In this document: positions 2,132 to 9,644 of the stretch, in pieces
Position numbering within the stretch: the stretch's first letter is position 1
How the letters are laid out: every line of letters begins with the position of its first letter
From: Erysipelotrichaceae bacterium
GTDB lineage: Bacteria > Bacillota_I > Bacilli_A > Erysipelotrichales > Erysipelotrichaceae
Length of the DNA stretch: 32,000 bases
Reading direction: 5' to 3'
Assembly: GCA_963676105.1 (NCBI GenBank)
Contig: OY781039.1
Span: forward strand, 1,650,001-1,682,000
Notes under the pieces: model-generated
The model's input: the letters and a program-made list of their open reading frames with translations, nothing else
Told to the model about the DNA's origin: nothing
Databases searched by the model: none
Position numbers and translations under genes: made by a program

Positions 2132-3049
2132 ATGCCAATTAAAATACCTAATTTATTACCAGCCGCAAAGATTCTTGAAGAAGAAAATATCTTTGTGATG
2201 AATGAACAAAGGGCGATGACTCAAGATATTCGTCCACTTAAAATATTACTTTTAAATTTAATGCCTACAAAGATTGAGACTGAAACTCAATTATCTCGTC
2301 TTTTAGGTAATACGCCTTTACAAGTTGAACTTGAATTACTACAAACTTCAACCTACAAAGCAAAGAATGTTTCAGAAGAACACATGTTAGCGTTCTATAA
2401 AAACTTTGATGATGTTAAAGACCAAAAATATGATGGTTTAGTGATTACAGGTGCACCCGTTGAAACCTTAGAGTTTGATGAAGTGGAATACTGGGAAGAG
2501 CTTAAAAAGATTATGGATTGGGGAAAGACCCATGTCCATTCTAAGTTCTATATTTGTTGGGGTGCTCAAGCAGCCCTCTATCATAACTATGGTATTGATA
2601 AGTTAGAACTTGATGAAAAGATGTTTGGTTTATTCCCACATAAAGTCAACAACAAGAAATCAATGTGGACACGTGGTTTTGATGATTGTTTCATGGCACC
2701 ACACTCACGTCATACAAGTGTTGACCCAGAAGAAGTTAAAAAGATTGATGAACTAGAAGTTATTGCAGAGTCTGAGGATGCTGGGATTTATCTCATTAAA
2801 TCTAAAGACTCACGTGAATTCTATGTCATGGGCCATAGTGAATATGATGCTGATACGCTTAAAAAAGAATATGATCGTGATGTGAAACTTGGCCGTCCAA
2901 TCAGAGTACCTGTAAACTACTTTGAAAATGATGATCCGAGTGCTGAAGTAAAAGTCACTTGGAGATCACATGCAAACTTACTATTTTCAAATTGGTTAAA
3001 CTATTATGTTTACCAATCAACACCATTTGATATAAATACAATTGATTAA
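2132..3049 (+). CDS. metA: homoserine O-acyltransferase (MetA family; succinyl or acetyl specificity not decidable)
   Basis: MPIKIPNLLPAAKILEEENIFVM...IRPLKILLLNLMP...VITGAP...HSRH...SNWLNYYVYQ is collinear with E. coli MetA from its first residue. RBS AAAGGA lies 12 nt upstream of ATG 2132. The tracked start 2096 lies inside the terminator and is unlikely. Confidence 0.92.
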   Translation: MPIKIPNLLPAAKILEEENIFVMNEQRAMTQDIRPLKILLLNLMPTKIETETQLSRLLGNTPLQVELELLQTSTYKAKNVSEEHMLAFYKNFDDVKDQKYDGLVITGAPVETLEFDEVEYWEELKKIMDWGKTHVHSKFYICWGAQAALYHNYGIDKLELDEKMFGLFPHKVNNKKSMWTRGFDDCFMAPHSRHTSVDPEEVKKIDELEVIAESEDAGIYLIKSKDSREFYVMGHSEYDADTLKKEYDRDVKLGRPIRVPVNYFENDDPSAEVKVTWRSHANLLFSNWLNYYVYQSTPFDINTID

Positions 3050-3062
3050 AGGGGGTAATCCT

Positions 3063-3488
3063 ATGATGATTTCAACAAAGGGTCGTTATGCCCTAAGAGT
3101 GATGGTTGATCTATATGATCACGAATCATTTAACTACATACCACTAAAAGACATTGCCGAAAGACAAGAGATATCTTTAAAGTATTTAGAGAGTATTATG
3201 ACCATTCTTTCAAAAGCGAAGTTTGTCGATGCAACACATGGTATAGGCGGTGGTTATAAATTAAATCGTACAGCTAGTGATTATACAGTGGGTAGTATTT
3301 TAAAACTCACCGAAAAGTCTTTAGCACCGGTGGCTTGTTTAGATAAAGGCTATGATTGTAGTCGTGGTAATACCTGTAAAACACTTCCAATGTGGGAAGG
3401 TTTGAATCAGGTTATTGACACCTACTTAGAAAGTATAAACCTTCAGCAACTCGCTGAAGAAGCGATCGGCTTTAACTATATGATTTAA
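3063..3488 (+). CDS. Rrf2-family transcriptional regulator with a Cys-X8-Cys-X5-Cys motif
   Basis: MMISTKGRYALRVMVDL... is a typical Rrf2 N-terminal wHTH. A C-terminal CLDKGYDCSRGNTC triad is present. RBS AAGGGGG sits 7 nt before ATG 3063, and the gene starts 13 nt after the metA stop. Confidence 0.88.
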   Translation: MMISTKGRYALRVMVDLYDHESFNYIPLKDIAERQEISLKYLESIMTILSKAKFVDATHGIGGGYKLNRTASDYTVGSILKLTEKSLAPVACLDKGYDCSRGNTCKTLPMWEGLNQVIDTYLESINLQQLAEEAIGFNYMI

Positions 3489-3520: not shown

Positions 3521-3553
3521 ATAAGGCGTAAAATAGTGGTAGAGGATAAGAAG

Positions 3554-4222
3554 ATGAAAAAGATGCTTAGACTAACATTTATCTTTATTATCAGCACACT
3601 ATTCTTGTCATCATGTTCAAGTGTTGAAGATGAAGATACTATATCAAGCTCAACTATGAGTCGTTTTAGAGAAAACGAAATAATGGAGTATCAAGGGGCA
3701 AGATTAGACCCTGCCGTAGGACCACGAGATAATTCAATTAGTGGTGTGCAAGAAGTCGATATTGAAACATATCAACTAAACATAACAGGGCTTGTCGATC
3801 AAAGCGTTACTTTAACTTATGAAGAAGTTTTAGCCCTAGATAAGTATCAAAGACTCATAACCCTTTATTGTGTTGAAGGCTGGGACGCGACCATATTTTG
3901 GGAAGGTGCATTCATTTCAGACATTATGAATTTAGCTGGCGTCAAAGCAGAAGCTAATACCGTTATCTTTAAGGCAGTGGATGGCTATACGACATCACTT
4001 CCATTAGATCAAATCGTTGATAATCAATTGATACTAGCTTATAACGCTAATGAAATACCTTTGCCACCAGAAATGGGTTATCCATTTATTGTGGTTGCAG
4101 AAGATAAATTGGGTTATAAATGGGCTCGTTGGGTTAATGAAATAGAATTATCAGATGATGCAGATTATCAAGGCTATTGGGAACAACGTGGCTTTAGTAA
4201 TGAGGCTGAGATAAATAGATAG
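3554..4222 (+). CDS. lipoprotein with a sulfite-oxidase-fold molybdopterin-binding domain (MsrP/YedY-like)
   Basis: Signal peptide MKKMLRLTFIFIISTLFLSSC carries a lipobox L-S-S-C (Cys codon 3614-3616). The core ...TLYCVEGWDATIFWEG...YNANEIPLPPEMGYPFIVVAEDKLGYKWARWVNEIEL resembles the YedY/MsrP catalytic domain, including the RCVE-type Cys. RBS GAGGAT precedes ATG 3554. Confidence 0.72.
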   Translation: MKKMLRLTFIFIISTLFLSSCSSVEDEDTISSSTMSRFRENEIMEYQGARLDPAVGPRDNSISGVQEVDIETYQLNITGLVDQSVTLTYEEVLALDKYQRLITLYCVEGWDATIFWEGAFISDIMNLAGVKAEANTVIFKAVDGYTTSLPLDQIVDNQLILAYNANEIPLPPEMGYPFIVVAEDKLGYKWARWVNEIELSDDADYQGYWEQRGFSNEAEINR

Positions 4223-4290: not shown

Positions 4291-4642
4291 GGGGATGTCA
4301 TGGTTTCGACAGGTTGATGTTGGATTCAGACTGCAGTGGAGTGGCGACCTAATTGCCAAAACAAACAATAACTGGAAACTCAAGATTAAGTTTCGCTGCC
4401 TAGTAGCTTTATAGCTCGCAGCTGTCGCTATTAACCCTGTCCTTGGGGTTGGTGGTTGATACTAATAAACAAGGGATCGCTAAAGAAGACAGTTCTTTCG
4501 AGTATTAGTTAAATCATAGTAGAACAACTTATCACGTGGCACGTTTGAAGCATTCGTGATTCGTACTAAAATCAAACTAAACTGTAGACGTTTGAATGGG
4601 GACACTATTTGGACAGGGGTTCGACTCCCCTCATCTCCACCA
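4291..4642 (+). ncRNA. ssrA: tmRNA (transfer-messenger RNA)
   Basis: The 5' end GGGGATGTCATGGTTTCGACAGG and the 3' end GGACAGGGGTTCGACTCCCCTCATCTCCACCA form the tRNA-Ala-like domain. The internal tag frame AAA CAA ... TTC GCT GCC TAG TAG (4359-4406) encodes (A)KQTITGNSRLSFAA with a double stop. Confidence 0.93.
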
Positions 4643-4725: not shown

Positions 4726-5427
4726 ATGGCACATAAATGCTTTGACCTTGGATGTAGTATGCATAATGGAAAGGGATGTGTAAGCACAGTTCCTATCTTT
4801 AATCATCTAACTCAAGATCAGATGGATGAAATTCAAAAACTTATTGTTACTAAGACCTTTAAAAAAGGTGAAACGATTTATGATGCAAATACAAAATCTG
4901 ATGCCTTATATGTTATTTCAAGAGGACGAGTTCGTATTGATCGAATTACAGAAGATGGTAAAAGTCAGTTGATTAGATTATTAAATCCTGGTGATTTTAC
5001 AGGAGAACTATCTTTGTTTAATGATTCGATTCATGATTCATTTGCGAGTGCCATGATGAATACAAATATTTGTATGATTAAGCGAGAAGATTTACAGGAC
5101 TTATTGAATAGATATCCTCAGATATCCCTTAAAATTATGTCTGAATTATCTAAAAGATTATCCAAGTCCGAAGAACAAAGCACGCGCTTAGCGACACAAA
5201 AAGTTGAGACACGTTTAGCGCTCTACTTAGTAGAAAGTTTAGAGTCTGAACAGTCTACAAAAATCATACACTTAGGAATGAGTAAGAAGGATCTAGCGTC
5301 TTATTTAGGTACAAGTCCAGAAACAATTAGTCGTAAGTTATTTGAATTTGAAGAAGCGGGTTATATCAAACAGATTTCTAATCAAGAAATCGAATTATTA
5401 AATATAGATGAATTACTTATGATATAA
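4726..5427 (+). CDS. Crp/Fnr-family transcriptional regulator, FNR-like (Cys-rich N-terminus)
   Basis: 233 aa with a cNMP-binding-type beta-roll (FKKGETIY...YVISRGRVRI...GDFTGE) and a C-terminal HTH whose recognition helix reads ETISR (E199/S202/R203). Cysteines are at positions 5, 10, 18 and 116. Confidence 0.88.
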   Translation: MAHKCFDLGCSMHNGKGCVSTVPIFNHLTQDQMDEIQKLIVTKTFKKGETIYDANTKSDALYVISRGRVRIDRITEDGKSQLIRLLNPGDFTGELSLFNDSIHDSFASAMMNTNICMIKREDLQDLLNRYPQISLKIMSELSKRLSKSEEQSTRLATQKVETRLALYLVESLESEQSTKIIHLGMSKKDLASYLGTSPETISRKLFEFEEAGYIKQISNQEIELLNIDELLMI

Positions 5428-5452
5428 GACCAATGATTTGGTCTTTTTTTTT
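5426..5452 (+). terminator. intrinsic terminator after the fnr-like gene
   Basis: AAGACCAA (5426-5433) / TTGGTCTT (5438-5445) with loop TGAT, then T7. Confidence 0.8.
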
Positions 5453-5458
5453 AAAAAC

Positions 5459-5472
5459 TTGATGTACATCAA
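5459..5472. promoter_or_regulatory. FNR-type binding site (perfect TTGAT-N4-ATCAA)
   Basis: TTGATGTACATCAA is a perfect palindrome. It is followed by TATAAT (5487-5492) and TATACT (5495-5500). The site centre lies 41.5 nt upstream of the TSS predicted from TATACT. Confidence 0.6.
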
Positions 5473-5531
5473 GGAAAATAAATCAGTATAATCATATACT
5501 TCTTTTATATTTAGAAAAGAGGCAAATTTTT

Positions 5532-5825
5532 ATGAGTGAAAACACTGCATTTAATCAATTATTTGAGAAATATTATAAAACCCTAGAGCAATATGTTCCG
5601 GTTGTTGAAAGAGTCCACGGTGGACACCATCCAGAGTTTTATGATGTTCGTGCTGAATACAATAAACTTGTTGAAAAGATTCGAGCAAATGATTTAGATC
5701 TAAGTGAAGAATTTGGACGTTTAGATTTAATAACCGATTCCTATAAAGTACCTGGGGATGTCTGTGAAACATATGAAGCAGTCTTTGTGATGCTTAAAGC
5801 ATTAGCGGATAGTTATAAAAAGTAA
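5532..5825 (+). CDS. small hypothetical protein resembling the central part of RIC/ScdA/YtfE di-iron (hemerythrin-like) proteins
   Basis: 97 aa. VVERVHGGHHPEF parallels the KVERVH segment of YtfE, and YKVPGDVCETYEAVFVMLKAL parallels its [30 protein letters not shown] lies 9 nt upstream. Confidence 0.6.
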   Translation: MSENTAFNQLFEKYYKTLEQYVPVVERVHGGHHPEFYDVRAEYNKLVEKIRANDLDLSEEFGRLDLITDSYKVPGDVCETYEAVFVMLKALADSYKK

Positions 5826-5832
5826 TTAGCTT

Positions 5833-7695
5833 ATGCAAAGATTTATTTTTAAGCATAAAAACAAACTTACATTTATCAGTGGTGTATTAGTTCTAATTGG
5901 TTATATCAGTGAACTAATATTAGATAATCATCTTATCTTTGAAGGTTCATTGATAGGGGCTTCTATCATCGCATCACTACCTATTTTTATACAAGCTTAT
6001 CAGTCTTTGAAATATAAGGTCGTTAGTATTGATGTTTTAGTTTCTATCGCAGTATTAGGGGCGTTTATGATACAGGCGTATGAAGAATCTGCCATTGTCA
6101 GTTTTCTATTTTTGTTTGGTGCGTACTTAGAGGCAAGAACACTAAATAAAACTCGAACAGCCATTAAATCGTTACTAGATTTGGCTCCTGAAACAGCACT
6201 AAGACTTAATGAAGATGGAACTTATGAAGAAGTGGATATTGATGAGATAGATGTTGATGATCGTGTCTTGGTTAAGACTGGCGCAAAGATACCCGTGGAT
6301 GGAATCGTTTTGAGTGGGGAAGCCTATGTTGATGAAGCGAGTATTACGGGTGAATCAAAACCTATTTCAAAAGAGTCAAACTCTAATGTATATGCGGGGA
6401 CGATTGTCGACAATGGAACCCTACAAGTCCAAGCATTGCGGGTCGGTGAAGATACTATCTTTGGAAAGATTATTGAACTGGTTGAAGAAGCACAGGATTC
6501 TAAATCACAAACCGAACGTTTTATTGATCGTTTCTCTAAACATTACACACCTGTAGTATTACTACTAGCATTAGTTGTTTATGTCTTTACAAGAGATATA
6601 GAACTATCAATCACTATACTTGTCTTAGGATGTCCTGGAGCTTTAGTGATTGGTGTTCCAGTTTCGAACGTTGCAGGAATTGGTAATGGTGCAAGCCACT
6701 CAGTCTTATTTAAAGGGAGTGAAACTATTCAAAGCTTCTCTCAAGCTGATGTCTGTGTTTTTGATAAAACTGGTACTCTAACACAAGGTAAAGCACAAGT
6801 TTCAAGTATTAAGATATTAGATGAAGATAGTAAGGACATTGAATCAATCTTAGTCAGTGTAGAACATGAATCAACTCATCCATTGGCAAAAGCGATTGTC
6901 GATTATTTTGATCAGTTTGAACTTCATAAAGTAGAAAAGACTGAAGTGATAAAAGGTCAAGGTGTTAAAGCAGTCGTAAACAAACAAAAGGTTATTATTG
7001 GGAATCTTTCATTAATGAATAATGAATCAATTGTCATTGATGAATCTAGTTCAGAAGAAATCAAAAGCATTGAAGAAAATGGTCAAACCTTAATTCTAAT
7101 GTCTGTTGATCAAAGTCTTAAATGTATCATTGGCGTGAAAGATCAACTAAGAGCGAATGTTAAAGAAAATATTGAACGATTAAGAAAACATGGTATTAAA
7201 CGATTTGTACTATTATCGGGAGATAACCAAAGTACAGTGGATATTATCGCAAATGAATGTAACTTGACTGAAGCCTATGGGAATTTATTGCCTCAAGACA
7301 AACTTGAGTTTGTAAAGAAACTTCAAAAAGAACATCATCATGTGGTATTTGTTGGTGATGGGATTAATGACAGTCCTTCACTTACTCAAGCAGATATTGG
7401 GATTGCGATGGGTTGTGGTACAGATGTGGCCATTGAAACCTCTGATGTTGTATTGATGAATTCTAAGTTTGAAAGTTTAGTCCATGCCTATTTACTAAGC
7501 AAACACACCGCAATGAATATGAAACAAAATATTTTTATTGCGATAGCGGTCGTATTATTCTTACTAATCAGTGTTTTCTTTAGTGATTGGATGAATATGT
7601 CGATTGGGATGTTTGTTCATGAAGGTAGTATATTAGTGGTCATTTTAAATGGAATGCGTTTATTAAAATTTAAAACAAATGTGGAGGATATATGA
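5833..7695 (+). CDS. heavy-metal P1B-type ATPase, short form without an N-terminal metal-binding domain (P1B-4-like)
   Basis: 620 aa with DKTGTLT (6763-6783), a THPLAKAI HP motif, GDGINDSPSL, a TM motif C-P-G (6631-6639) and a last-TM HEGSILVVILNGMRLL (7618-). There is no HMA domain before the first TM helix. Confidence 0.9.
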   Translation: MQRFIFKHKNKLTFISGVLVLIGYISELILDNHLIFEGSLIGASIIASLPIFIQAYQSLKYKVVSIDVLVSIAVLGAFMIQAYEESAIVSFLFLFGAYLEARTLNKTRTAIKSLLDLAPETALRLNEDGTYEEVDIDEIDVDDRVLVKTGAKIPVDGIVLSGEAYVDEASITGESKPISKESNSNVYAGTIVDNGTLQVQALRVGEDTIFGKIIELVEEAQDSKSQTERFIDRFSKHYTPVVLLLALVVYVFTRDIELSITILVLGCPGALVIGVPVSNVAGIGNGASHSVLFKGSETIQSFSQADVCVFDKTGTLTQGKAQVSSIKILDEDSKDIESILVSVEHESTHPLAKAIVDYFDQFELHKVEKTEVIKGQGVKAVVNKQKVIIGNLSLMNNESIVIDESSSEEIKSIEENGQTLILMSVDQSLKCIIGVKDQLRANVKENIERLRKHGIKRFVLLSGDNQSTVDIIANECNLTEAYGNLLPQDKLEFVKKLQKEHHHVVFVGDGINDSPSLTQADIGIAMGCGTDVAIETSDVVLMNSKFESLVHAYLLSKHTAMNMKQNIFIAIAVVLFLLISVFFSDWMNMSIGMFVHEGSILVVILNGMRLLKFKTNVEDI

Positions 7696-7919
7696 AAAAA
7701 GCAGTTTTACAATTAGATACACTAGTGTGTCCATCATGTTCAATGAAAATTGAGAGTGCCGTTAAATCGATGGTGGGTGTGGATAAAGACAGTGTAAATG
7801 TATTATTTAATTCAAGTAAGGTGAAGTTAGACTTTGACGATTCTAATGTGTCAGTCGAACAAATTAATGAAGTTATCACTAAACTAGGATTTGATGTATT
7901 AAAGTCATCTATTAAATAA
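7692..7919 (+). CDS. stand-alone heavy-metal-associated (HMA) domain protein, CopZ-like
   Basis: 75 aa with LDTLVCPSCSMKIESAV (CxxC at 7728-7739) and a ferredoxin-like HMA pattern. Its start ATG overlaps the ATPase stop (ATGA at 7692-7695). Confidence 0.85.
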   Translation: MKKAVLQLDTLVCPSCSMKIESAVKSMVGVDKDSVNVLFNSSKVKLDFDDSNVSVEQINEVITKLGFDVLKSSIK

Positions 7920-7929
7920 ACAATTTAAG

Positions 7930-7949
7930 AAAGCGCAATGCGCTTTTTT
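7930..7949 (+). terminator. intrinsic terminator after the pump operon
   Basis: AAAGCGC (7930-7936) / GCGCTTT (7940-7946) with a T-run to 7949. Confidence 0.75.
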
Positions 7950-8012
7950 ACTAGGCAATCTGGTTGCGAAATTGATTACTTAAAGACAAAATAGAGACTA
8001 GGTAAATTGGTG

Positions 8013-8810
8013 ATGAAAATGTTAAAAACAGAATTTTTAATTAAAGATATGGATTGTCCATCAGAAGAGCAGATGATCCGCATGAAACTAGCTGACTATC
8101 AAACAATTAAGTCTTTGGATTTTGATTTAGATGCAAGAAAACTAACGGTTTTCCATGAAACCGAACTTGAAAAAATATCTAATTCACTGGATTCGTTAAA
8201 TTTGGGATCGAATTTAATTCAATCAAGCGAATATAATGACGAGATTACATCATCAAAAATTGATCGAAAGTTACTGTGGTGGGTTTTAATCATAAACTTT
8301 GGATTCTTTGTCTTAGAAGCTATCTTTGGTTATGTTTCAAATTCGATGGGTTTAGTAGCGGATTCATTAGATATGTTAGCCGATGCATTTGTTTATGGTT
8401 TGTGTATTTATGCTATTTCGGGAAGGTTGTTAATCAAGAAACGTATTTCAAGACTGAGTGGAACTTTACAAATGAGTCTTGCGATATTAGGCTTAATTGA
8501 AGTATTGAGACGTTTTATAGGATTGGAAGAAATTCCGAACTTTACCATGATGATTGGAATCTCTGTTTTAGCTTTGATTGGAAATTCTTTATCACTAGTG
8601 ATTTTAAACAAATCTAAAAGTGATGAGGTACATATTAAATCAAGTCAAATATTTACTTCAAATGATGTCATTGCGAATGTTGGGGTCATACTCGCAGGTA
8701 TATCTGTCTATTTTCTTGACTCTAGACTCCCAGATCTTATCATTGGCTTAATAGTATTCACTTTAGTCTTTAGAGGAGCCTTAAGGATATTTGAATTATC
8801 TAAGAACTAA
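8013..8810 (+). CDS. cation diffusion facilitator (CDF)-like transporter with an N-terminal HMA-like domain, lacking a C-terminal cytoplasmic domain
   Basis: The N-terminus FLIKDMDCPSEEQMIRMKL (DCPSEE at 8052-8069) is followed by the CDF TM1-TM2 signature LEAIFGYVSNSMGLVADSLDMLADA. The protein ends right after the last TM helix. The start is ambiguous: TTG 8007, ATG 8013 or ATG 8019. Confidence 0.72.
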   Translation: MKMLKTEFLIKDMDCPSEEQMIRMKLADYQTIKSLDFDLDARKLTVFHETELEKISNSLDSLNLGSNLIQSSEYNDEITSSKIDRKLLWWVLIINFGFFVLEAIFGYVSNSMGLVADSLDMLADAFVYGLCIYAISGRLLIKKRISRLSGTLQMSLAILGLIEVLRRFIGLEEIPNFTMMIGISVLALIGNSLSLVILNKSKSDEVHIKSSQIFTSNDVIANVGVILAGISVYFLDSRLPDLIIGLIVFTLVFRGALRIFELSKN

Positions 8811-8878: not shown

Positions 8879-9367
8879 ATGAGTCACGTAAATCAAGTCA
8901 TGCAGGAAATGATTGAATATTATGGAACAGATGTTCGACGTATTAATCATTTTTTGAAAGTGTATGGCTATGCGAAAACCATCGCTGAGACTGAAGGACT
9001 TGATCAAAACCTTTGTGAGATAACAGAGATCTTAGGCTTAATACATGACATCGGAATTAAAAATAGTGAAGTGAAATATGGAAGCAGTTCAGGGATATAC
9101 CAACAAATTGAGGGTCCTGATGAAGCTAGAAAACTATTAACTAAGATTAAAGTGGATAGATTACAAATAGAACGTATTTGTTATGTGATAGCGCATCATC
9201 ATGAATACACTGATATTGATGGTCTGGATTATCAAATTTTAGTTGAAGCAGATTTTCTTGTGAATGCTTATGAAGATGAGTTAAGCAAAGATGTGATAAA
9301 AACATTTGAAGAAACTATTTTTAAAACACAAACTGGACTCAAGCTATTAGATAGCATTTATGGATAA
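8879..9367 (+). CDS. HD-domain phosphohydrolase-family protein
   Basis: 162 aa with an HDIG motif (LIHDIGI) and a downstream HHHEY. RBS AGGAGA lies upstream. Confidence 0.8.
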   Translation: MSHVNQVMQEMIEYYGTDVRRINHFLKVYGYAKTIAETEGLDQNLCEITEILGLIHDIGIKNSEVKYGSSSGIYQQIEGPDEARKLLTKIKVDRLQIERICYVIAHHHEYTDIDGLDYQILVEADFLVNAYEDELSKDVIKTFEETIFKTQTGLKLLDSIYG

Positions 9368-9644
9368 AAGACAAAGTGAAAAAGAAACAATAAATATCAT
9401 GATTGATCTTTATGATAAGCATCATCAAAGTGATCATAGTGAATTAAAAGATTACGCATTTAATCGAATTGATGCGTGTCCTTATACAGAGACGAAAACA
9501 TTTTGTAGTCAATGTAGTACACCCTGTTATAAAGAAGACATGAGATGTGAAATCAAAGAAGTTATGCGATATTCAGGACCTCGTATGATTCTAAAAAAAC
9601 CAGTACTTGCGCTTAAACATCTAAGATACACAATCTTTGGTTAA
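9360..9644 (+). CDS. nitrous-oxide-stimulated-promoter family protein (YgbA-like), Cys-rich
   Basis: 94 aa with CPYTETKTFCSQCSTPCYK and MRYSGPRMILKKP, typical of the YgbA_NO family. It overlaps the HD gene by 8 nt (ATGGATAA). Confidence 0.72.
   Translation: MDKRQSEKETINIMIDLYDKHHQSDHSELKDYAFNRIDACPYTETKTFCSQCSTPCYKEDMRCEIKEVMRYSGPRMILKKPVLALKHLRYTIFG

Follow-up and report, generated by a model that had tools for sequence, protein, structure and literature searches.

We analyzed a window of 32,000 nucleotides from the genome of an Erysipelotrichaceae bacterium (assembly GCA_963676105.1, contig OY781039.1, positions 1,650,001 to 1,682,000 of the forward strand), in which the gene for a regulator of the CRP/FNR superfamily is followed by a perfect FNR-type palindrome and by an operon of three genes. 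The operon encodes a small protein that resembles the RIC iron-sulfur repair proteins in fold, a P1B-type ATPase and a stand-alone HMA protein. Positions are those of the window, and all features described within it lie on its + strand. By sequence comparison, the locus is a variant of the known, poorly characterized Flp system and orthologous to the flpA locus of Lactococcus.

The regulator gene (4726-5427) is an open reading frame of 233 codons, assigned to the Flp type by its domain matches and its homology to FlpA. Both domains expected of the CRP/FNR superfamily exceed their cut-offs (cNMP_binding, PF00027, 73.4 bits; HTH_Crp_2, PF13545, 57.4 bits). The recognition helix reads ETISR at residues 199-203, which bears out the assignment to the FNR (E--SR) type made in an earlier, sequence-only reading of this DNA, and the motif PETISRK around it is invariant across the family alignment. 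Cys5, Cys10, Cys18 and Cys116 are all found where that reading placed them, the first three in a C-X4-C-X7-C spacing with His13 between the last two. The closest solved structure is Aliivibrio fischeri FNR, with whose central cluster cysteine Cys116 aligns. The protein does not have the C-X2-C-X5-C N-terminal triad of FNR proper, and at 87.3 bits against a cut-off of 228 (NCBIfam NF008365) it stays below the score of the curated Fnr family. An intrinsic terminator is predicted at the end of the gene (5426-5452; hairpin 5426-5445 with an 8-bp stem, a 4-nt loop and a T-run; ΔG −9.5 kcal/mol).

The predicted Flp/FNR operator TTGATGTACATCAA (5459-5472) is a perfect palindrome that starts six nucleotides past the T-run, as the earlier reading had it, and it is the sole perfect TTGAT-N4-ATCAA in the window. 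A scan of the window for more operators with up to two mismatches, combined with the spacing rule described below, returned this known site and intragenic noise. By itself, the box is not significant, because 20 of 100 shuffled sequences hold at least one match (0.23 perfect boxes are expected per window by chance); its weight comes from its position and its conservation. The predicted −10 hexamer TATACT (5495-5500) lies 22 nt past the box, has no −35 hexamer and predicts a transcription start site (TSS) at about 5507. When the TSS is set 7 nt past TATACT, the centre of the box falls at −41.5, so the distance calculated in the earlier reading is arithmetically correct. An alternative −10-like hexamer, TATAAT (5487-5492), was found by a consensus scan, which pairs it with TGTACA as a −35 element.

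The first gene of the operon (5532-5825) encodes a four-helix protein of 97 residues, here called mini-RIC, which was identified from its open reading frame and its resemblance to the RIC/ScdA/YtfE fold. Its family comprises 66 proteins of about 86-128 residues, mostly 95-101, in which H29, G30, H33, E35, P74, D76, C78 and E79 are invariant. The AlphaFold2 (AF2) model (pLDDT 92.9) is a four-helix structure whose top fold matches are Staphylococcus aureus RIC/ScdA and Escherichia coli YtfE, with a TM-score of about 0.7, normalized to the query, against S. aureus RIC. Residues 62-95 align with residues 183-216 of a full-length RIC, which is the sole matching segment. Family searches gave partial RIC/ScdA matches only, with 37.7 bits against a cut-off of 204.7 for NCBIfam RIC (TIGR03652) and no Pfam match. 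Both ScdA_N and the terminal ligands are missing from the protein, which lies outside the RIC (YtfE/ScdA) family proper.

The second gene (5833-7695) encodes a P1B-type ATPase of 620 residues, which according to domain and family searches has no N-terminal metal-binding (HMA) domain. The pump carries FDKTGTLT, ITGES, STHPLA, VGDGINDSP and, in transmembrane helix 4 (TM4), GCPGAL, and its score of 562.6 against a cut-off of 346 (TIGR01525) places it among the P1B type. The last transmembrane helix carries HEGS (HEGSI), and the tail reads NMKQNIFIAIAVV...GMFVHEGS. P1B-4 pumps are reportedly (Arguello 2003, Smith 2014) marked by SPC in TM4 and HEGxT in the last transmembrane helix. With CPG rather than SPC and with HEGSI, our pump falls outside P1B-4, and with CPG rather than CPC and no HMA domain it also falls outside P1B-1 (CopA) and P1B-2 (ZntA/CadA). 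The marks of these two are CPC in TM4, one or more N-terminal HMA domains and, in TM5/TM6, YN/MxxSS (P1B-1) or K/D (P1B-2). All 43 regulator-linked homologs carry CPGAL and HE(A/G/T/L/V)S, whereas unlinked P1B pumps of the same loci carry CPC. Judged by these motifs, the pump belongs to a separate CPG / HE(G/A)S subgroup of P1B ATPases. The label "P1B-4-like" given to it earlier therefore holds for the missing N-terminal metal-binding domain and for the HEGS helix, but not for TM4. Its substrate cannot be read from the sequence, because the pump is as near to CopA and ZntA as to the P1B-4 sCoaT structure (E 1e-96 to 1e-88) and exceeds the cut-offs of both the "Cd" and the "Cu" subfamily. A literature search for "CPG motif" in P1B pumps found no paper.

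The third gene (7692-7919) encodes a stand-alone HMA protein of 75 residues with the motif LVCPSC. Its ATG overlaps the TGA of the pump gene as ATGA, and the two genes are predicted to be translationally coupled. The protein exceeds the HMA cut-off (PF00403, 40.2 versus 24.8), contains CPSC and scores 49 and 39.6 against CopZ models with cut-offs of 91 and 95. Its relatives form a tight family, with the consensus QLE.LTCPSC..KIE...VLFN.SKVK..FD, in which LTCPSC stands outside a GM(T/S)C context and which appears distinct from CopZ. A terminator hairpin (7926-7950; ΔG −12.0 kcal/mol), followed by Ts and absent from a simple terminator scan, closes the operon. The earlier description of a RIC-like mini-protein, a P1B ATPase without a metal-binding domain and a coupled HMA protein running to a terminator is thus confirmed in its genes, its ATGA overlap and its hairpin.

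Relatives of the regulator number more than 1,100 at E ≤ 0.001, and the best 120, as listed, share 54-100% identity with it. From a scan with one genome per species we assembled 80 related loci, whose hosts are Erysipelotrichaceae, Acholeplasmataceae, Fusobacteria, Clostridia, Bacillaceae and Carnobacteriaceae. A CPG-type ATPase gene, an HMA gene or both lie beside the regulator gene in 47 of the 80. Two gene orders recur. Order A, shared by the window and 11 loci, runs regulator, box, mini-RIC, pump, HMA, while order B, mainly from Bacillaceae and Clostridia, consists of a box and the HMA gene, then a box followed by the pump and regulator genes.

The loci also fix the geometry of the promoter. 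In a census of the window and the 80 loci, which covered 154 box occurrences on both strands and spacings of 10-35 nt, a −10-like hexamer stands exactly 22 nt past the box in 67 of the 154, and every other spacing occurs 1-13 times. The box lies 5′ of the mini-RIC gene with a −10-like hexamer exactly 22 nt on in 11 of 11 order-A loci, including one (L007) in which a DUF6448 gene separates the two. Over the loci of the census, the genes behind the 22-nt sites encode the HMA protein, the pump, mini-RIC or the regulator itself. Plasmids of Enterococcus, Listeria and Lactococcus share this geometry, as does the chromosomal flpA locus of Lactococcus cremoris. Because of this family-wide rule, we take TATACT as the −10 element of the window. 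The closest relative (L001, regulator 89% identical) keeps TATACT at +22 and has lost TATAAT. The latter was rejected as the regulated −10, being neither conserved in L001 nor at the family offset. A TTGAT-N4-ATCAA site at −41.5 without a −35 hexamer is the textbook architecture of class II activation by FNR and CRP, and because of this promoter geometry activation is the supported reading. The comparison supports the view that the box is a true operator, conserved and placed at the distance of class II activation, which would control the mini-RIC/P1B-ATPase/HMA operon.

One arrangement among the relatives is more elaborate. In L026, two Flp boxes 54 bp apart (9085-9152) lie between divergent DUF6448 and pump genes, each with a −10 hexamer at a distance of 22 nt on the strand of that box, which would form a compact divergent pair of activator-dependent promoters.

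The boxes of the relatives extend the regulon beyond the three genes of the window. Their other targets are Dps, full-length RIC and DUF6448 proteins and, once each, a flavodoxin and a cupin. Full-length RIC genes (231-232 residues) stand behind a box with the 22-nt rule, 5′ of the HMA and pump genes, in four Clostridia-type loci (L009 2703-3398, shown with ScdA_N and hemerythrin domains; L030 2744-3439; L055 2954-3652; L065 3044-3739). Because of these four loci, the RIC link of mini-RIC is not accidental, and this small protein may have arisen by shortening of a full-length RIC in the same regulon. DUF6448 proteins, an uncharacterized family, likewise appear from the position of their genes to belong to the Flp regulon. 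They are predicted to be secreted, with a mature N-terminus of H-C-D-T-M-D/E-G-P and a His-rich C-terminus, and their genes lie behind 22-nt-rule boxes in Acholeplasmataceae and Clostridia (L007 4788-5471; L026 5005-5787 and 8452-9021; L031 338-1147; L032 961-1752). The conserved targets Dps and full-length RIC point to an oxidant/iron-stress regulon rather than to anaerobic control.

The family is also widespread on plasmids. Homologs of the regulator occur on 478 of them (Enterococcus 246, Lactococcus 78, Leuconostoc 36, Listeria 26, and others). The plasmids that we inspected, from Enterococcus faecium (pHMC8C-1-optrA, L081), Listeria (pLmcIH1-6, L082), Lactococcus lactis (pUC06B, L084) and Enterococcus faecalis (pCQ025-2, L085), carry a module of Dps, Crp/Fnr regulator, HMA protein and P-type ATPase. 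Most transcription units of the module stand behind a 22-nt-rule box, and the pump motifs are the same as in the window. Several of the plasmids are conjugative, with genes for antibiotic resistance (optrA, str). The module of Listeria pLM58 bears the untested annotation "copper chaperone / copper ATPase" (PMC5663981), and a literature search on the plasmid module yielded annotation only. E. faecalis EF1400 could not be linked to the family in a search of the literature.

The link to Flp rests on the regulator and on its gene neighborhood. The regulator of the window is 33% identical over 216 residues (E 1e-43) to the "FNR like protein A" (FlpA) of L. cremoris, with two cysteines aligned, and the regulator of the L. 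lactis plasmid is 60% identical to the same protein. At the chromosomal flpA locus of L. cremoris (L086), a first unit consists of the box TTGACAGAAATCAA, a 22-nt spacing, TATACT and the gene of a 620-residue ATPase, which is 50% identical to the window pump over its full length and carries GCPGAL and HEAS. A second unit has the box TTGATACAAATCAA, again followed after 22 nt by a hexamer, TAAAAT, and then by genes for an HMA protein, Dps and FlpA; this Dps is identical or near to the L. lactis Dps structures PDB 1zuj and 1zs3. The Flp trait of one N-terminal and one central conserved cysteine is found in the window protein, as Cys18 and Cys116 are conserved without exception in family alignments that include lactococcal, enterococcal and listerial members. 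The trait of HMA and P-type ATPase genes behind FNR-type sites is present in the window, at the flpA locus and on the plasmids. The sequence-only reading knew of no characterized system with this composition; the Flp loci of Lactococcus and Lactobacillus casei represent this very system with its genes arranged differently.

Earlier work on Flp offers clues to function. Operons of the form orfX-orfY-flp with an FNR site near −42 were reportedly described by Gostick et al. in 1999, in agreement with the arrangement observed here, and the Zn pool is reportedly altered in a flpA flpB mutant (Scott et al. 2000). On the basis of the literature, we take Cys18 and Cys116 to be the disulfide pair of FLP. 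In L. casei, according to a 2019 paper (PMC7162690), flp adjoins dpsB, and a primer placed 5′ of dpsB encodes EKVMFVGDGI, which we read as a P-type ATPase motif. The same paper recounts from older work that Flp binds DNA once it is oxidized and has formed an intramolecular disulfide, and that loss of flpA and flpB makes cells hypersensitive to H2O2; it states that the Flp-regulated genes "remain to be clarified" (PMC7162690). FlpA is reported to take up an O2-labile Fe-S cluster in vitro via non-cysteinyl N-terminal ligands (cited in PMC5039431).

The region in which such ligands would lie was compared across 124 family members, taking the tail before Cys18. Cys18 and Cys116 are the only family-invariant cysteines. 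Further tail cysteines number 0, 1, 2 and 3 in 17, 32, 57 and 18 of the members, and two order-A relatives (L072, L077) have none and 7-10 histidines instead. Cysteine and histidine interchange freely and together amount to at least four in the tails of 112 of the 124, with a maximum of 19 histidines in one tail. Many relatives show C-X2-C-X6-C, near to the C-X2-C-X5-C of FNR. Across the relatives, the cysteine content of the tail shows no correlation with an aerobic or anaerobic lifestyle. The tail resembles a variable region of metal or cluster ligands around a fixed cysteine pair. Because the tail cysteines are not conserved, the window spacing is C-X4-C-X7-C and the Fnr score is 87 versus 228, the canonical FNR cluster is not a property of the family, and the tail census rules out the four-cysteine cluster as a family trait. 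The earlier view of Cys5, Cys10, Cys18 and Cys116 as an echo of the FNR [4Fe-4S] ligands is not upheld by this pattern, in which 17 of the 124 have no N-terminal cysteine other than Cys18 and His-rich tails in its stead.

With moderate confidence, we favor a model in which the protein is an Flp-type class II activator of a damage-limitation module and would respond to stress, oxidizing or nitrosative, or to labile metal (iron). A regulator dimer would bind the palindrome at 5459-5472 and activate as class II from −41.5, with TATACT as −10 and no −35. The regulated transcript would run from about 5507 to the terminator at 7926-7950 and supply mini-RIC with its conserved His/Glu/Asp/Cys set, the pump and its CxxC HMA partner. 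The regulator gene would be expressed from its own promoter to its own terminator and, unlike that of many relatives, would not be autoregulated here. Its N-terminal His/Cys-rich tail together with Cys18 and Cys116 would form the sensory module, which by analogy with L. casei FLP could work as a Cys-Cys switch or through a labile cofactor. Our best guess for the signal is oxidizing or nitrosative stress, or a labile metal (iron) pool freed by such stress. The output would be metal export, metal handling and functions like Fe-S repair, rather than a switch for anaerobiosis.

In PerR regulons of Firmicutes, a Dps-like protein goes together with a P1B pump that exports Fe(II) (MrgA/PfeT, Dpr/PmtA). 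An oxidant, nitrosative or labile-iron signal is favored because Dps is likewise paired with a P1B pump there, because the fixed cysteine pair matches the disulfide switch of FLP, because Dps and RIC are co-regulated in relatives, and because the flp mutant is reported to be peroxide-sensitive. The sequence-only reading had proposed a redox, O2 or NO switch for metal handling, of which a redox or oxidant switch is plausible, while O2, NO (nitric oxide) and metal are indistinguishable by sequence.

Several observations weigh against this model. The His-rich tails look like metal ligands, which a pure thiol-disulfide switch would leave unexplained, and the four cysteines of the window regulator could accommodate an Fe-S cluster. 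Conservation is highest for the pump and its chaperone among the targets, as is typical of a direct metal sensor. We know of no precedent for a CxxC HMA partner of Fe(II) pumps, and the HMA protein scores nearest to CopZ among database models, though below the cut-off. No linked pump is present in the fetched flanks of 33 of the 80 loci, and no dps gene stands behind a box in the 32-kb window. The TSS, binding and induction at the window locus are predictions.

In the first rival, the regulator would be a direct metal sensor, in which the tail with Cys18 and Cys116 binds the substrate of the pump (divalent, for instance Zn, Co, Cd or Fe, or else Cu(I)) in place of the FNR Fe-S cluster, so that metal triggers dimerization and DNA binding and the operon confers metal resistance. 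The abundance and interchange of Cys and His (at least four in 112 of 124 tails) suit such a role, as do the P1B pump and HMA protein as core conserved targets and the secreted DUF6448 proteins, with their N-terminal H-C-D and His-rich C-terminus, as a further one. The occurrence of homologs on 478 plasmids and of the module beside other metal-resistance genes in Listeria pLM58 also fits, as does the Zn pool reportedly altered in the flpA flpB double mutant. However, the CRP/FNR family is not known to include an established metal sensor, a literature search found nothing relevant, and the names FNR, Crp and Flp are absent from the part covered, about half, of the text of a 2024 review of bacterial metal sensing. 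The presence of Dps and RIC suits stress better than resistance to a single metal, and the tails vary too much in length and composition for one defined site. We regard direct metal sensing as possible but rather doubtful.

A broader idea, which we put forward tentatively and with comparable reserve, is that the whole Flp branch forms a metalloregulator family of CRP/FNR proteins. The Cys/His tail and the two fixed cysteines would bind metal or a His-ligated cluster that reports labile iron, and the family would control an unclassified P1B subtype (TM4 CPG, TM6 HE(A/G)S) with a dedicated HMA protein, joined in the lineage of the window by a small metal-binding protein derived from RIC.

We consider a classical FNR-type sensor of O2 (or NO) unlikely. 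In such a sensor, Cys5, Cys10, Cys18 and Cys116 would hold a labile [4Fe-4S] cluster, the holo-dimer would activate under anoxia and loss of the cluster would switch the operon off. The three N-terminal and one central cysteine, the alignment of Cys116 with the central cluster cysteine of FNR, the rank of FNR as best solved relative and the C-X2-C-X6-C of many relatives are in line with this, and so is the proximity of a ygbA-family gene and of the gene for an Rrf2 regulator. The reported uptake of an O2-labile cluster by FlpA in vitro (cited in PMC5039431) speaks for it as well. The N-terminal cysteines are not conserved, however, down to none in L072 and L077, and the window protein departs from FNR in its spacing and its Fnr score. 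The regulon is devoid of anaerobic-respiration genes but includes Dps and RIC, and many hosts are strict anaerobes, in which the switch would stay on permanently. Repression, which the sequence-only reading had considered in case TATAAT were the −10, is very improbable: the true promoter would be TGTACA-18-TATAAT (5463-5492; 10/12 in the consensus scan) with the bound regulator covering its −35 and keeping the operon off, but L001 has kept TATACT at +22 and not TATAAT, and the fixed 22-nt offset suits activation, not occlusion.

The genes around the regulator and its operon were recorded as well. Directly 5′ of the regulator gene lies a tmRNA gene (4291-4642; ARAGORN; Rfam 128.7 bits), which was the sole match of an Rfam scan for riboswitches or other RNA elements. 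Its tag peptide, given by ARAGORN as AKTNNNWKLKIKFRCLVAL, is unusual in being rich in Trp, Cys and Lys and in having an end other than the common ...ALAA. Further upstream are the gene of the Rrf2/IscR-like regulator (3042-3488), which begins within the end of the gene before, and, following it, that of a lipoprotein-like molybdopterin oxidoreductase similar to MsrP/SorA (3536-4222). Directly past the operon terminator, a CDF-family efflux protein (8007-8810) has an N-terminal HMA-like domain with the motif MDCPSEE, a single cysteine in place of CxxC; no Flp box precedes its gene, which is absent from L001. An HD-domain gene (8879-9367) then overlaps a gene of the YgbA_NO "nitrous oxide-stimulated promoter" family (9360-9644, 107 bits). 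The ygbA gene of E. coli is a member of the NO-responsive NsrR regulon, and the gene here is a possible link to NO stress in the neighborhood, although it has no box. The HMA-CDF, HD and ygbA genes are all missing from L001, and we do not tie them to the regulon because the scan of the window gave no further operator.

Flp proteins have been known since 1998-2000, and the comparison now yields a regulon that can be tested. It has a core of HMA protein and CPG-type pump, with Dps, RIC or mini-RIC and DUF6448 as additional members, and a promoter grammar of box, 22 nt and −10. Its range extends from Erysipelotrichaceae, Clostridia, Bacillaceae and Fusobacteria to E. faecium, Listeria monocytogenes and Lactococcus plasmids. 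Within this range, the window locus is an ordinary member of the Flp family and not a new kind of system. New are the regulon and its promoter grammar, traced through several phyla and onto plasmids, and the CPG-type pumps as a subgroup that is widespread and unclassified. If the signal is a metal, the regulators would constitute a new family of metal sensors; if it is oxidant stress, they would realize a PerR-like logic on an FNR scaffold. Should the broader metalloregulator idea be true, bacterial metal homeostasis would gain a new family of sensors as well as a new subtype of pump, and the presence of the module on hundreds of enterococcal, listerial and lactococcal plasmids would be explained.

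Compared with known systems, the locus resembles E. coli FNR at class II promoters in its E--SR helix, its TTGAT-N4-ATCAA site at −41.5 and its aligned central cysteine. It differs in that the family is without a conserved C-X2-C-X5-C triad and serves a dedicated local regulon, whereas FNR is a global anaerobic regulator. With PerR regulons, Flp shares the combination of a Dps-like protein and a P1B ATPase lacking an N-terminal metal-binding domain under one stress regulator, and the HE(G) of the last helix. PerR, in contrast, is a Fur-like repressor and not a CRP/FNR activator, and the window pump has CPG rather than SPC and an HMA partner. Mini-RIC shares with the di-iron Fe-S repair proteins RIC, YtfE and ScdA its fold and the segments VERVHG..HPE and P.D.CETY; unlike them, it has 97 residues only, is without ScdA_N and ends before the terminal His/Glu ligands. 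The pump is similar to P1B-4 ATPases (sCoaT 7qbz, PfeT, CzcP) in having no N-terminal HMA domain, an HEG-type last helix and a length of about 620-680 residues, and is set apart from them by CPG instead of SPC in TM4 and by its dedicated HMA partner.

The closest counterparts are the Flp loci of Lactococcus and L. casei. In the lactococcal flpA locus, the order is ATPase, then HMA-Dps-FlpA, whereas the regulator gene of the window lies upstream, is separately terminated and would not be autoregulated. The operon of the window opens with mini-RIC in place of dps, its regulator contains two additional cysteines in the N-terminal part, and the host is one of the Erysipelotrichaceae rather than a Lactococcus. 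Common to both are a homologous regulator, the same box 22 nt before the −10, a CPG-type ATPase and the same type of HMA partner.

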